From IMG/VR virus record IMGVR_UViG_3300025010_000008: a DNA stretch of 64,000 nt. One strand, given 5' to 3'. Position numbers and translations under genes: made by a program. Numbering within the stretch: position 1 is the first letter of the stretch; each line of letters begins with the position of its first letter. Positions 17,368 to 22,705 of the stretch are shown here, piece after piece. The notes beneath the pieces were generated by a model, which was not told the origin of the DNA, did no database searches, and saw only the letters and a program-made list of their open reading frames with translations. Origin of the DNA: a virus.

Positions 17368-18063
17368 TTGCAAATTCTAACCCCAACACAACTAATTAGG
17401 CAGGCAGCTCTAAAAACTCCCAGTGTGCCGGTAGCAATGGGCAAAACCATAGAGTATGCTGACGTACAGCTGGAAGAAGTAAAGGATCAAAGATGTTGGC
17501 TATGCGGAGGAAAAACGGGAGGTCAGGGACAACCCATCAAAAAAGCTATCAAGCCGACATTCACCGACCGGGACAAGGCCCGCGTACCTCACAGTAATTC
17601 ACTTTGTCCTGGCTGTGCCTTCTGCCTGTCATATTCGCCACTCAGGAACTATAATATTTTGGCGACAATGGACGGCTTGAGACACCCAACAAGGCCGGAA
17701 GTTAAGGAGTTGCTACTTGAACCTCCTGAGCCGCCTTTTGTTCTCTGTATTGCTGTGTCAGGGCAGAAGTGGTTACATTTCCGCTCTAAAGTGGCGTATT
17801 CGCGGGACGGATTCCCGGCACAGTTAGAGGAAACGCTAATATGCGTAGAAAGGCCGTTGCTCCGCGAATGGCTGGAGGTTATCGAAGAACTGTATACCGT
17901 ATTTACGAAAGAGGAAATCAAGACCGGCAGGTACAGCCAGAACAGAATCAAGACGTTCGGCCTGAATGAATTTCAGTCAGTTGACGGGAAAATAGCAGGA
18001 GTGAGAGGGACAAGGCTTTTCGATTTGGCCGTCTTTGTCGCTCAAAAGAAAGGAGAGGAATAA
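17368..18063 (+). CDS. csf1: Csf1-like (type IV Cas8-like large subunit) zinc-finger protein
   Basis: 231 aa, TTG start after RBS ggaggtg. Cys4 motif CWLCGG...CPGCAFC. First gene of the operon, in the csf1 position. Confidence 0.55.
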   Translation: MQILTPTQLIRQAALKTPSVPVAMGKTIEYADVQLEEVKDQRCWLCGGKTGGQGQPIKKAIKPTFTDRDKARVPHSNSLCPGCAFCLSYSPLRNYNILATMDGLRHPTRPEVKELLLEPPEPPFVLCIAVSGQKWLHFRSKVAYSRDGFPAQLEETLICVERPLLREWLEVIEELYTVFTKEEIKTGRYSQNRIKTFGLNEFQSVDGKIAGVRGTRLFDLAVFVAQKKGEE

Positions 18064-18528
18064 ATGTATTACAATTTTGACACAGAGGAAGAAAACGCTG
18101 CCACTGCTGCTCTGCTGGTATATGCCATATACCGAAGCCGCGACGCGAAGCGCTTTAAAGTCAATCCTGAGATGTGGACAAGGATCGAAAACGCTGTCAA
18201 ATCAGCCTCAAAGCGTGCTATGGATTTAGGGGATTTTATCGAAAAACTCAAACCTAAACTGCAATGCGGGACGATTCACCCACGCTGGGCAAAGACTATC
18301 CCGGATGGCATTGTCAGTATGCGGGTTATGCCTGACGGATCAGTTATTGAGGTGGCAGACAGCGGGAAACGCCAATTCCTTACCGACGTTCTGAATGAGG
18401 CGGATCACCGGGCAGTGCTGGATTATCTCTATCGCAAAACTGCCTTAGTTGTGCTATTGGTCAGGGACAGGCTTGAACGCGAAAAGCCTATTGAAATTAA
18501 ATTAGGGGAGGATTTTATTGATGTCTAG
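18064..18528 (+). CDS. Cas11-like small subunit (assigned by position)
   Basis: 154-aa predicted helical protein between the csf1-like and cas7-like genes. There is no gap to its upstream neighbour (TAA 18061-18063, ATG 18064). Confidence 0.4.
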   Translation: MYYNFDTEEENAATAALLVYAIYRSRDAKRFKVNPEMWTRIENAVKSASKRAMDLGDFIEKLKPKLQCGTIHPRWAKTIPDGIVSMRVMPDGSVIEVADSGKRQFLTDVLNEADHRAVLDYLYRKTALVVLLVRDRLEREKPIEIKLGEDFIDV

Positions 18529-19699
18529 TATTAGATTGGATGGAAAAATCACATTATTGTCGCCTTTATCACATATTGGGGAAAGTTCAGGAATTGACAG
18601 TTTCTTGTCAACTGATACTGTTATTGGGGTAGATGGAAAACCTTTGGAAGTATTCACCTACAGCGGGAACGCATTTAGGGGGCAACTTCGCGATCTATGC
18701 GCCGCCTATATGACCGAGAAGCTTGGGAATTTGCAGTACAATCCCGATGTGTTCTATCTCTTGTTCTCAGGCGGTTCCCTTGGTGGCGCTCAGTCAGTTG
18801 ACATAGACCAGGCCCGCATGTATCGCAGAAATATTCCGATGCTCAGCGTGTTTGGCGGCGGCGTAGGTAATCAGATTCTAACCGGCAAAATCAAGGTTGG
18901 TGCTATGTATCCACTCACGGAAGAATGCCAGAGAATTCTTCCTGAACATTTGAGAGACGAAAATGCGCCAAGTTGGCGGCAATGGACTTTCGACAAGAGC
19001 TTTACCCGCATGGACGATGCCAAAAACGAGAACATGCGTAAATACCTAACAGGTACCGAAACAGATGGACTTGCCATAACCGGGCAGGCAGAGGATGACA
19101 AAAAGAAAAAGAAAAAAGAAGATCCTCCACAGCAGATGCGGTATACCGTTGAAATGCTGGCGGCAGGTGCTGTGATGTACCAGCGTATTGATTTATGCGA
19201 TCTGTCCGATTTGGAGCTTGGGGCTTTTGTGTCTGCCTTAGTGGAATTTTCCAAGAAAAGCTACATTGGGGGTAAGAGCGGCACCGGCCACGGGCTCGTA
19301 GACATCGAATACACCTGGAGAAAAGCAGGACAAAAAGAATCTGAAGGGATTTTCCTGAAAATTTCCTCTGACTGCCTTTGGTTATCAGAACCAGCAGAAG
19401 AAGCCAAACAGAGTTATGATCAGTTTTTGGTGACTTTATACGACAGGTATTTGGAAAATAGCGCCGATGAGCTGGCTAAGCTGTTGAGCGGAGAAACTGT
19501 AAAACCAGGTAAACCGGAAGAATCAGACGTTTCAGTCATTAGGAAAACGCTTAGTAAGGCAGTAAAGCATTTATCCGACAATGAGCTCATTTCTTTATGG
19601 GAAAGATGGTCTAGTGAATGTTATAGTGCTGGCTCATTATCTCCTAGTAAAGAATATTGCAACGAGTTTAAAGCTTGGTTGTCGGCAGGTGGAAAATAA
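18521..19699 (+). CDS. csf2: Csf2-like Cas7 RAMP backbone subunit
   Basis: 392 aa. It has the RAMP-like motifs SPLSHIGE, YSGNAFRGQLRD and SVFGGGVGNQILTGK, plus a Lys-rich insertion DDKKKKKKED. Confidence 0.65.
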   Translation: MSSIRLDGKITLLSPLSHIGESSGIDSFLSTDTVIGVDGKPLEVFTYSGNAFRGQLRDLCAAYMTEKLGNLQYNPDVFYLLFSGGSLGGAQSVDIDQARMYRRNIPMLSVFGGGVGNQILTGKIKVGAMYPLTEECQRILPEHLRDENAPSWRQWTFDKSFTRMDDAKNENMRKYLTGTETDGLAITGQAEDDKKKKKKEDPPQQMRYTVEMLAAGAVMYQRIDLCDLSDLELGAFVSALVEFSKKSYIGGKSGTGHGLVDIEYTWRKAGQKESEGIFLKISSDCLWLSEPAEEAKQSYDQFLVTLYDRYLENSADELAKLLSGETVKPGKPEESDVSVIRKTLSKAVKHLSDNELISLWERWSSECYSAGSLSPSKEYCNEFKAWLSAGGK

Positions 19700-21014: not shown

Positions 21015-21774
21015 TTGGCGGGAATTGTATAGACTGCACGCAAAACTACCGGTGTTCAAAAAAAGGTTAGAAAAAACCAGGAATATTATTTCCGAAGCGT
21101 TACAATCTATATCAAAACCTTATGTCGCCGTATCGTTCGGAAAAGATTCTATCGTTCTGATGCACATGCTCATTCAACAGATGCCGGATATACCTATTGT
21201 TTGGTCAGATAGGGGCCCGGAAGCTGAATTGCCGGAAACTTACCCGTATATAGAAAGAATAAAAGCTATGTACGGGATAAACCTGCAAATTATTTATCCG
21301 TCGATGTCGATGTTTGAGATTTATAGAAGATATGGACTTCCGGAGATAGACGAAGGCGTCACCAGGTCTATTGTGAAAGAGGTAAACCTTGTGCTTGCTT
21401 TCGCGGAATACGTTAAAAAAAATAACATTGACGGCTATTTTCAAGGACTCAGAGCTGATGAAAGTAATGGCAGACGTTGGTACGCCAAAAAATATGGCCA
21501 TATCCACTACAGAAAAAGAGACGGAATAACCGTATGTAATCCGTTGCTGCATTGGTCGGCAAGGGATATTTGGGCCTATATCGTGACAAACGACATACTT
21601 TATCATCCTGAATACGACAATGATAAATTTAAAAGCCGCGAACTGATACGGCTGAGCAATTGGAGCGGCCTGTATTGGGCGCAAAACGGCAGGATGGCAG
21701 AGTTAAAATATTACCATCCTGACTTATTTCAGCAATTAGTTAACGAATTTCCGGAGGTGAAGACTTTTGTATAA
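21007..21774 (+). CDS. CysH-like PAPS reductase/PP-loop ATPase family protein
   Basis: The PP-loop motif VSFGKDS lies near the N-terminus. The TTG start at 21007 follows GGGGTG and overlaps the cas6-like stop. Confidence 0.75.
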   Translation: MDDWRELYRLHAKLPVFKKRLEKTRNIISEALQSISKPYVAVSFGKDSIVLMHMLIQQMPDIPIVWSDRGPEAELPETYPYIERIKAMYGINLQIIYPSMSMFEIYRRYGLPEIDEGVTRSIVKEVNLVLAFAEYVKKNNIDGYFQGLRADESNGRRWYAKKYGHIHYRKRDGITVCNPLLHWSARDIWAYIVTNDILYHPEYDNDKFKSRELIRLSNWSGLYWAQNGRMAELKYYHPDLFQQLVNEFPEVKTFV

Positions 21775-22705
21775 TAGATTTATTTTAGGTTCGGGCAATT
21801 TTTCAATGTTTGCAATGGCTATTAGCATAGCAGCTTCCTGGGCCTGGGGCGTGTCGGTTATAGTTGGTATACAGGTCTTTCAAAACAAAGGCGTTGAGGC
21901 ATTTACTATTTGGGCCGCCGCCAATGCTTTAACGCTTGCTGTTTTTGGCTTTGCTGCAGCGAAAATAAGCAAGGACGTACGGAAACTGCCAGAAATATTG
22001 CCGGGTAATCTGAAACCTGTATATTCAGGATTTCAGTATCTAATACAGTTTTTCTCAATCTTAGTAAATCTAACGGCAATAAAAACAGCGGTAAGCATGA
22101 TCGGATATACAAATAACTACTCATGGCTATTTCTTGGCACATTACTGGTTTTGGGAGTTGTGATGTGGGGATTTCCTCATGTTATTCAGGGAAATATGGC
22201 TAAATACGTGCTGTGGATTGGGTTACTTTTGACTGTCATATTTATGAGCGGTCACGGCATAATTATTAAGCATTCTGCCAGTGCCGATATTTCTTGGGGG
22301 CTATACGGGGCTTTAATCCTTTTTTGTGGCCCGGTCATGGATCAGCAGATGTGGCAGCGCAGGGCTGCTTTCGGCGGTAATACCAAGCCTTTTATTTTAG
22401 CCAGTGTGTTTTTTGGCATATATATGCTACTTGTCGGCTCTGTTGCTGCTGTGAGTGCCGGGAAAGGTATGCTGATAGCAACGATTGTTTTTCTTGTGGC
22501 CGCCTCTACTCTGACCAGTGCTGCTTCAGCTATATCGTATTTTCATAGCAATATCAAGTCTGCCAGAATAGCCATTGCAACGGTTTTTTTGATTGCTGCA
22601 ATTTGTATGATATTTAACTTATCAGTCCTGCAGATTTGGGTACTATACGGATCGCTGAGAATACCGTTTGCTTTGTTCGCTTTCTATAGAATATTTAAAC
22701 ACTAG
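21767..22705 (+). CDS. Polytopic membrane protein (about 9-10 TM), weak solute:sodium symporter-like motif
   Basis: 312 aa, almost entirely hydrophobic helices. Motif DQQMWQRR. The TTG at 21767 follows GGAGGTG and overlaps the cysH-like stop. Confidence 0.65.
   Translation: MYNRFILGSGNFSMFAMAISIAASWAWGVSVIVGIQVFQNKGVEAFTIWAAANALTLAVFGFAAAKISKDVRKLPEILPGNLKPVYSGFQYLIQFFSILVNLTAIKTAVSMIGYTNNYSWLFLGTLLVLGVVMWGFPHVIQGNMAKYVLWIGLLLTVIFMSGHGIIIKHSASADISWGLYGALILFCGPVMDQQMWQRRAAFGGNTKPFILASVFFGIYMLLVGSVAAVSAGKGMLIATIVFLVAASTLTSAASAISYFHSNIKSARIAIATVFLIAAICMIFNLSVLQIWVLYGSLRIPFALFAFYRIFKH

Follow-up and report, generated by a model that had tools for sequence, protein, structure and literature searches.

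Type IV-B CRISPR-Cas (short palindromic repeats, clustered and regularly interspaced, with their associated proteins) systems are, in the literature searched, without an established function, and the near-invariant CysH-like gene that accompanies them is viewed as key (PMC7038947, PMC8175902). This association with cysH is already published (10.1101/270033; PMC7038947), and the protein, CasCysH, was described as lacking the catalytic cysteine, with an ATP alpha-hydrolase or adenylation activity proposed for it (PMC8175902). The IV-B Csf complex was solved as a Csm-like filament on RNA (PDB 7JHY; PMC7937560). Subtypes IV-B and IV-D diverged recently, and 12 IV-B loci with Cas6 have been recorded (PMC7038947). 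IV-B was reported on predicted prophages in 2018 (bioRxiv 10.1101/270033, Shmakov et al.) and in 2020 (PMC7038947, Pinilla-Redondo et al.), and a virus-borne IV-B locus with a mini-array was described in 2024 from the 'Fuxiviridae' archaeal viruses (PMC10848311). In the literature searched, no functional study of IV-B or CasCysH after 2021 was found. Here we analysed a 64,000-nucleotide (nt) stretch of DNA from a temperate phage (IMG/VR record IMGVR_UViG_3300025010_000008; the whole stretch is called the window), in which seven genes at positions 17368-22705 of the plus strand form one cassette. The evidence supports its assignment as a type IV-B-like CRISPR-Cas system, predicted from its proteins, with an added Cas6 and a small membrane transporter.

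The Csf genes and their companions in the cassette

The translations were compared with PADLOC/CCTyper-derived profiles, Pfam, NCBIfam and PDB, and the first four genes matched the subunits of a type IV effector. The csf1 gene (17368-18063, +; 231 amino acids (aa), TTG start) encodes a type IV large-subunit-like, small Cas8-like protein whose zinc finger (CxxC...CxxC) reads CWLC...CPGC in the translation, and matched PADLOC Csf1_0_IV at 7.9e-37. It is followed by cas11 (18064-18528, +; 154 aa), which encodes the type IV small subunit (PADLOC Cas11_2_IV, 5.5e-47). The csf2 gene (18518-19699, +) for the Cas7 backbone subunit yields 393 aa from a TTG at 18518 or 392 aa from an ATG at 18521, carries the motifs SGNAFRGQLRD and FGGGVGN, and matched PADLOC Csf2_0_IV at 2.3e-70. 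The Cas5-like csf3 (19675-20382, +) yields 235 aa from 19675 or 227 aa from an ATG at 19699 (PADLOC Csf3_0_IV, 1.7e-49), and Pfam PF27782 was matched by the identical product in locus L071. The NCBIfam equivalogs of Csf1 (TIGR03114, 2.3e-18), Csf2 (TIGR03115, 1.8e-16; curated cut-off, 130 bits) and Csf3 were all matched under their curated cut-offs and were not used as proof of membership.

Among PDB entries, Csf2 matched the solved IV-B Csf2 (7jhy) at 1e-15 and the IV-A Csf2 structures far more weakly, at 8e-5 to 7e-3. A match to 11fs, an entry named 'Cas7c', stood slightly above that to 7jhy (2.8e-17), and a literature search for a IV-C structure accounting for it found nothing. The window Csf2 also has a C-terminal extension of about 66 aa (19500-19699, just before csf3), which is absent from relatives of 318-346 aa and for which no homology was detected. 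At the level of profile similarity, these results show that the cassette encodes a complete Csf effector module of Csf1, Cas11, Csf2 and Csf3.

The fifth gene, cas6 (20379-21014, +; 211 aa), encodes a predicted RNA hairpin endoribonuclease that matched Pfam PF10040 (CRISPR_Cas6) at 6.9e-14 and, as its best type IV-specific profile, Cas6_6_IVD at 5.8e-9. Its C-terminal domain aligned with Thermus Cas6A and Cas6B in PDB. The Cas6 clade is tiny (10 clusters), and in its alignment His36, the PFS motif after it and the glycine-rich loop GTGAKTTMGCG are invariant; the protein is probably active, keeping residues typical of active Cas6 enzymes. A conserved, active-looking Cas6 would imply a defined RNA partner. 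No repeats were found in or adjoining the window operon, no CRISPR-like repeats within 10 kb of the related IV-B loci, and no mini-arrays in any relative; Rfam gave no RNA family common to the operon flanks of the relatives.

The sixth gene, cysH-like (21007-21774, +; 255 aa), encodes a PP-loop protein of the PAPS-reductase family (Pfam PF01507, PAPS_reduct, 2.2e-25; PDB PAPS reductases, 1e-13). Its PP-loop reads SFGKDS, and S[F/G]GKDS is invariant across the homologues. The single cysteine of the protein is not conserved, 10 homologues share no conserved cysteine, and the C-terminal 65 residues contain none, so that the ECGLH-type catalytic motif of bona fide CysH is missing. Lacking a conserved cysteine, the protein is not a sulfonucleotide reductase and cannot perform thiol chemistry of the CysH/DndC type. 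In its residues it matches the published description of CasCysH. Elsewhere in the window, a second gene of the PAPS-reductase family, a non-Cas paralogue (60370-61080, +), lies downstream of a C5 DNA methylase gene (57358-59232) and encodes an SLGKDS PP-loop and a CYCC cysteine cluster; the two window proteins are similar in the PP-loop region only (35% identity over 51 aa). Such a pairing of methylase and PAPS_reduct genes also occurs in L008.

The last gene (21767-22705, +; 312 aa) encodes a predicted minimal 10-helix LeuT-fold (SLC5/SSS-like) secondary transporter. Its AlphaFold model, built with 17 homologues, reached a pLDDT of 91.4 and a pTM of 0.89, and Foldseek placed SLC5/SSS proteins first (CHT1, TMq 0.78-0.80), then AdiC, Nramp, SiaT, DUR3 and CodB. 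The family conserves an SSS-like DQQMWQRR motif and a first helix rich in glycine and tryptophan. No Pfam profile matched at E<=0.1, the SSS profile PF00474 included. Judged by the model, the protein is best described as belonging to a distinct minimal LeuT-fold family, a bare 10-helix core with fold-level similarity to SSS/SLC5. The family comprises 356 representative clusters at E<=1e-3 and 45 at E<=1e-30, of 1.84 billion. Every close homologue (>=38% identity) adjoins a CysH-like gene, in either order, and Csf genes are present wherever upstream sequence exists. At about 30% identity, homologues in gut phages without Csf genes have PAPS_reduct genes (about 276-380 aa) one or two genes away (L025, L032, L039, L043 and L053), some of them with a small gene of about 200 aa before PAPS_reduct that is weakly ParB_N-like in L039. 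Other distant homologues occur in cellular contexts (L021). Because the homologues recurrently adjoin or lie near CysH-like or PAPS_reduct genes, the transporter is predicted to act together with the PP-loop enzyme and not to be beside it by chance.

All seven open reading frames (ORFs) are intact, and every junction is abutting or overlapping. The csf1/cas11 gap is 0 nt (18063/18064); cas11 and csf2 overlap by 11 nt (8 nt if csf2 is read from the ATG at 18521), csf2 and csf3 by 1 nt with the csf3 ATG at 19699, csf3 and cas6 by 4 nt, and the cas6/cysH-like and cysH-like/transporter pairs by 8 nt each. The cassette is probably expressed as a single translationally coupled operon. Upstream it is bounded by a weak terminator-like hairpin with a T run (17333-17353, +; stem 17333-17348), 3' of the amidase endolysin gene (16687-17316; Amidase_2, 4e-23), and it ends at a stronger terminator-like hairpin with an 8 bp stem and a T run (22704-22723, +). 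A GGAGG ribosome-binding site lies 8 nt 5' of the TTG start at 17368. The perfect TTGACA-17-TATAAT promoter at 22810-22838 serves the gene after the operon. No separate consensus promoter was found between the 17333-17353 hairpin and csf1, and transcription that starts at the lysis genes may read through into the operon. Between its amidase gene and csf1, the closest relative, L002, has a terminator, a promoter-like site and a small ORF that by eye looks like a ribbon-helix-helix regulator.

Both the subunits Csf1, Csf2 and Csf3, which mark type IV, and the features of IV-B are present: cas11 between csf1 and csf2, the adjacent cysteine-less cysH-like gene and the absence of a CRISPR array with the cassette. 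Typical IV-B loci have no Cas6/Csf5, and here Cas6 is encoded at 20379-21014. The locus thus matches the rare published Cas6-bearing IV-B exceptions, not typical IV-B. It differs from IV-A, which has DinG, Csf5/Cas6 and an array and usually no Cas11, in the absence of DinG and the presence of Cas11, and from IV-D in the absence of a RecD-family helicase and an array. Neither the operon nor the sequence within about 5 kb of it encodes DinG, RecD or an HD nuclease, and no Cas10-like HD protein is present. The operon has none of cas1, cas2 and cas4 and no effector nuclease, and no Cas1, HD or nuclease hit came from the flanking and larger window ORFs, a scan in which cas2-sized ORFs were not covered exhaustively.

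An earlier note, made from the letters of the window, had anticipated much of this. It had read the locus as a IV-B operon of seven abutting or overlapping genes between a terminator after the endolysin gene and a terminator of its own, and the ORFs, the junctions and the two hairpins are where it placed them, the upstream one being weak. The profiles confirmed its subtype reading through Csf1-Cas11-Csf2-Csf3 and the CysH-like protein, agreed with its assignment of each Csf gene and of the Cas6-like fifth and PP-loop CysH-like sixth products, and gave neither a lack of RAMP similarity nor a match to an unrelated complex, the two outcomes that it had named as counting against it. The confident model bore out its polytopic membrane protein, and the operon indeed encodes no cas1/cas2, DinG, RecD or HD nuclease.

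Recurrence in phage lineages and selection

Several samples yielded the window phage, in 15 assembled contigs. Its tail genes and lysis cassette lie upstream of the operon, which forms the start of an accessory (moron) region of about 21 kb that runs from the lysis genes to the integrase. Downstream are a large serine recombinase (38605-40077, -), an ImmA/IrrE-type protein (41637-42614, -) and, beyond the latter, replication and recombination genes and the C5 methylase. Within a gene for a replication protein O / DnaB_2-like product (55836-56735), 3-4 direct repeats of 22-28 nt (CAAGGGTTGCACGATTGTGCAA; 56142-56255) are probably origin iterons.

The same cassette was found in at least seven phage or prophage lineages. 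The identical seven-gene order occurs in the viral contigs L001 and L002, at 55-92% aa identity per gene, and in a prophage of the cultured Pullulanibacillus camelliae CGMCC 1.15371 (L018), where the operon lies between early genes (methylase, dUTPase, RecU and a LexA-like protein) and the terminase and portal genes. A cultured strain with an identical cassette makes genetics possible. In a Desulfosporosinus metagenome-assembled genome (L008), tail, holin and amidase genes are followed by Csf1-Cas11-two small genes-Csf2-Csf3-transporter-CysH. The contigs L011-13 have the order Csf1-Cas11-Csf2-Csf3-HTH-CasE-second Csf1/Csf3 pair-CysH-transporter-CysH (HTH, helix-turn-helix), in which the HTH gene, the CasE-type (PF08798) gene and the duplicated csf1/csf3 pair occupy L011 3780-6132. 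Cas6 comes first in L007/L015, which also hold a second Csf1/Csf3 pair; L075 reads endolysin-holin-HTH-Cas6-Csf1-Cas11-Csf2 up to the contig end, and L014 reads CysH-transporter-RecD2-like helicase (1748-4093). The transporter is absent from L077 and from L079, and the latter has a 439-aa radical SAM gene (10804-12123) between cas6 and the cysH-like gene. Its position beside the cysH-like gene, on the opposite side from that of the window transporter, also points to small-molecule or modification chemistry. At least four loci lie shortly downstream of a lysis cassette and the settings vary, so that the cassette is mobile accessory cargo whose insertion site is favoured but not fixed.

Comparison with L002 showed that all seven genes are under purifying selection. 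The ratios of nonsynonymous to synonymous substitution (dN/dS) cover csf1 (0.04), cas11 (0.04), csf2 (0.05), the cysH-like gene (0.06) and the transporter gene (0.17); synonymous sites of csf3 and cas6 are saturated. Because the same order recurs in unrelated contigs and selection acts against change relative to the closest relative, the gene arrangement is not due to chance. Divergence from L002 is mosaic: Cas6 and the transporter share 55% aa identity, against 82-92% for the genes that flank them, the intervening cysH-like gene included, which suggests faster adaptation or recombination.

No match to the operon was found in a DNA search against 50,697 deposited phage genomes. Among these genomes, the only Csf2 homologue was that of Skermania phage SPI1 (L081, KR011061.1; 28% identity), in a block of five genes, Orf40-44 at about 32.6-36.2 kb, all annotated as hypothetical proteins. 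Judged by the size and order of its genes, this block resembles a IV-B locus that has escaped annotation, and going by ORF size neither Cas6 nor the transporter is present. A tblastn search with Csf2 against plasmids matched 59 records at about 28-30% identity, mostly from Rhodococcus and Mycobacterium; the best match, at 37%, was to a Rhodovastum plasmid, from which Cas6 and the transporter are absent. IV-B cassettes are thus recurrent accessory cargo of anaerobe-associated phages, and not of actinobacterial plasmids alone.

Two points of the earlier note fared less well. It had called a temperate phage an unusual setting, and prophage-borne (10.1101/270033, PMC7038947) and virus-borne (PMC10848311) IV-B loci were already published. 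Its two extra genes are present as it said; they are not incidental, as several lineages carry Cas6 and the membrane protein along with the cassette, and the latter goes specifically with the CysH-like gene. Relative to the literature searched, what is new is the conserved Cas6-plus-transporter architecture in a phage clade, the radical SAM variant, the tie between transporter and PP-loop enzyme, seen also in Csf-less phages, and a cultured host of the cassette.

Proposed mechanism and competing explanations

We consider it fairly probable that this is a functional, array-less type IV-B-like cassette in the moron region of a temperate phage, and that it works as follows. The Csf proteins would form a Csm-like filament on RNA, and Cas6 would define that RNA by cutting at a hairpin. 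Since repeats are missing from the vicinity of every related locus, the RNA would be supplied in trans, by a source other than the cassette. The Csf complex would bind complementary nucleic acid without cutting it, and the CysH-like enzyme would spend ATP on adenylating its substrate, which would be a small molecule or else the nucleic acid held by the complex. A small-molecule co-substrate or product would cross the membrane through the transporter, and the phage would deploy the system in conflicts with its host or with rival mobile elements.

Several observations weigh against this proposal. No RNA partner was found, and the steps of binding, adenylation and transport are all ones that we infer. 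In published work the RNA on the IV-B complex was heterogeneous (PMC7937560), and there may thus be no defined guide. The putative catalytic-loop Asp of Csf2 is not conserved across the clade, and RNase activity therefore cannot be assumed either way. Many of the Csf-less transporter/PAPS-reductase pairs come from closely related gut phage contigs and represent few independent events; two loci, L077 and L079, do without the transporter; and the window phage offers no clear promoter 5' of csf1. A more specific version, in which a ribonucleoprotein (RNP) of Csf and Cas6 would guide an adenylation-dependent reaction, analogous to those of PP-loop enzymes such as TilS or TtcA, that modifies target nucleic acid with a small molecule imported into the cell, or would lead to production of a small-molecule signal, is put forward tentatively and seems rather doubtful. 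If true, RNP-directed modification or signalling would give type IV-B a biochemical activity.

The cassette might instead serve as a guide hijacker or anti-CRISPR sponge, in which the phage Cas6 recognises host CRISPR repeats and the Csf proteins load host CRISPR RNAs (crRNAs), sequestering them or reusing them against competitors, with the CysH-like protein and transporter as an unrelated or auxiliary arm. Sponge and scavenger functions are published hypotheses for IV-B (PMC7038947, PMC8175902). They would agree with the absence of an array in cis from every relative despite a conserved, active-looking Cas6, and fast divergence of Cas6 (55% against 82-92% between window and L002) is expected of an enzyme tracking different host repeats. 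We nevertheless regard this as unlikely, though worth keeping in view: I-E crRNAs expressed alongside the Mycobacterium IV-B complex were not loaded by it (PMC7937560), an anti-CRISPR of seven genes would come at an unusually high cost (as argued in PMC7038947), and the near-invariant CysH-like gene and its transporter partner are left unexplained. The tie of the transporter, or in one relative of the radical SAM enzyme, to the CysH-like gene points to small-molecule chemistry rather than simple RNA sponging. There are type III systems in which the signal SAM-AMP made by Cas10 is linked to the membrane protein CorA. By analogy, the CysH-like protein, as an ATP alpha-hydrolase, might make an adenylated small-molecule signal upon target recognition, and the LeuT-fold protein might then alter membrane permeability. 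The two genes are tightly adjacent and translationally coupled, in either order, the transporter evolves quickly, and second-messenger formation by CasCysH has already been proposed (PMC8175902). However, the protein has a complete secondary-transporter core with conserved polar helix motifs, unlike a pore or toxin; relatives replace or omit it; and no homology to sensor domains was found. We hold this signalling scheme to be improbable.

Whether the operon could be a conventional CRISPR system with its own array turns on six degenerate 37-nt repeat units with irregular spacing of 16-72 nt at 27461-27871 (+), 4.7 kb downstream of the operon, which Cas6 would process. They lie on the same strand, end in GAAAC/GGAAC, and have a precedent in the archaeal virus IV-B locus with a mini-array (PMC10848311). 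They also lie directly 3' of a Cas12u1/V-U1-like gene (25672-27384, +; 570 aa; PADLOC, 5.9e-141), whose homologues (L082-L084; 54-60% identity) have the same repeat family in regular arrays directly downstream, with no type IV gene called in their 4 kb flanks. Across the Cas12-like loci the repeats fold into a covarying two-helix pseudoknot (15 units, 97% paired, compensatory changes in 8 of 9 pairs; the covariation score was reached by none of 500 shuffles), and the closest IV-B relatives have no such repeats. From their position, the homologous arrays and the covarying pseudoknot, the repeats are those of the Cas12 locus, a second and separate CRISPR-Cas locus of this phage, and the IV-B cassette is therefore without an array; the homologue arrays and the covariation largely refute the alternative, to which we give very little credence. 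Even less can be said for a decaying, non-functional CRISPR-Cas remnant carried passively by the phage. The lack of an array, a nuclease and adaptation genes and the odd C-terminal extension of csf2 would suit one, but none of the seven ORFs is disrupted and all are coupled in translation, distant lineages keep the architecture, and dN/dS is 0.04-0.17 at saturated synonymous divergence. Pseudogenisation is refuted by this selection analysis, and decay has hardly any claim on our belief. We thus return to a functional, array-less cassette as the reading that we favour.

The accessory region holds further features around the Cas12 locus. Repeat units R3 and R4 have TATAAT-like sequences at their 5' ends. 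The spacer-like segments had no credible match elsewhere in the window or in deposited phages, a metagenome pattern search for host arrays with the R1/R6 repeat consensus gave four single occurrences and no array, and no Cas12 relatives turned up in a protein-guided scan of viral contigs. An HDV-like (hepatitis delta virus) self-cleaving ribozyme at 24196-24266 (+; Rfam RF02682, 49.6 bits) follows a 68-aa ORF and a near-consensus promoter (23891-23919) and stands in the leader of a transcription unit extending into the Cas12-like gene and the repeats that follow it. After the repeats comes a gene for a 481-aa protein (28067-29512, +) with a weak DUF2325 match (phrog_11092, 9.5e-49), and after it a type II hammerhead ribozyme (29755-29814, +; RF02276, 47 bits). 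In the closest relative, the sequence about 700 nt downstream of the transporter gene holds a twister-sister ribozyme (L037 11653-11723, +). Since the ribozymes differ in class, the same accessory region of related phages holds different self-cleaving ribozymes. In L011-13 the IV-B cassette has a homologous DUF2325 gene as its immediate neighbour (L011 8746-10113, -), and a Cas12f-like TNB gene follows further downstream on the contig. An AcrVA2-like gene (PF26125; L082 6262-7284) lies immediately 3' of the CRISPR array of one Cas12-like homologue.

Comparison with known systems

The closest characterised counterparts are the IV-B locus of the Mycobacterium sp. JS623 megaplasmid (7JHY) and the Rhodococcus and Mycobacterium plasmid loci, which share the order csf1-cas11-csf2-csf3 and an adjacent cysteine-less cysH-like gene. 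Like the window cassette, the Mycobacterium and Rhodococcus plasmid loci have no helicase, nuclease, cas1/cas2 or array. In contrast to them, the window cassette adds Cas6 and a LeuT-fold transporter, its Csf2 is only about 28-30% identical to theirs, and it resides on phages that bin with Firmicutes and other anaerobes, not on actinobacterial plasmids. Subtype IV-D (RecD, Cas6 and an array; Firmicutes plasmids) likewise combines a Cas11-containing effector with Cas6, and relative L014, in which a RecD2-like helicase gene comes after the cysH-like and transporter genes, recalls it; the window cassette, however, has neither RecD nor an array of its own and has the CysH-like gene instead. The published IV-B loci of viruses and prophages likewise set a IV-B effector and a CysH-like gene on a viral genome. 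The Fuxivirus locus has a mini-array, which the window cassette lacks, and an associated transporter or radical SAM gene is not described in the literature searched.

Two further comparisons concern the companion genes. In phage PAPS-reductase/ParB-like modules (IbrA/IbrB-like, DUF3440), distant transporter homologues have a PAPS_reduct gene at a distance of one or two genes, and ParB_N and DUF3440 genes also occur near the Rhodovastum IV-B plasmid locus; the PAPS-reductase proteins of these modules are longer, at about 360 aa. The SLC5/SSS symporters (CHT1, SiaT, DUR3 and SGLT) share with the window transporter the predicted fold and a DQQxWQR-like motif, whereas the window protein, at 312 aa, would represent the bare core of that fold.

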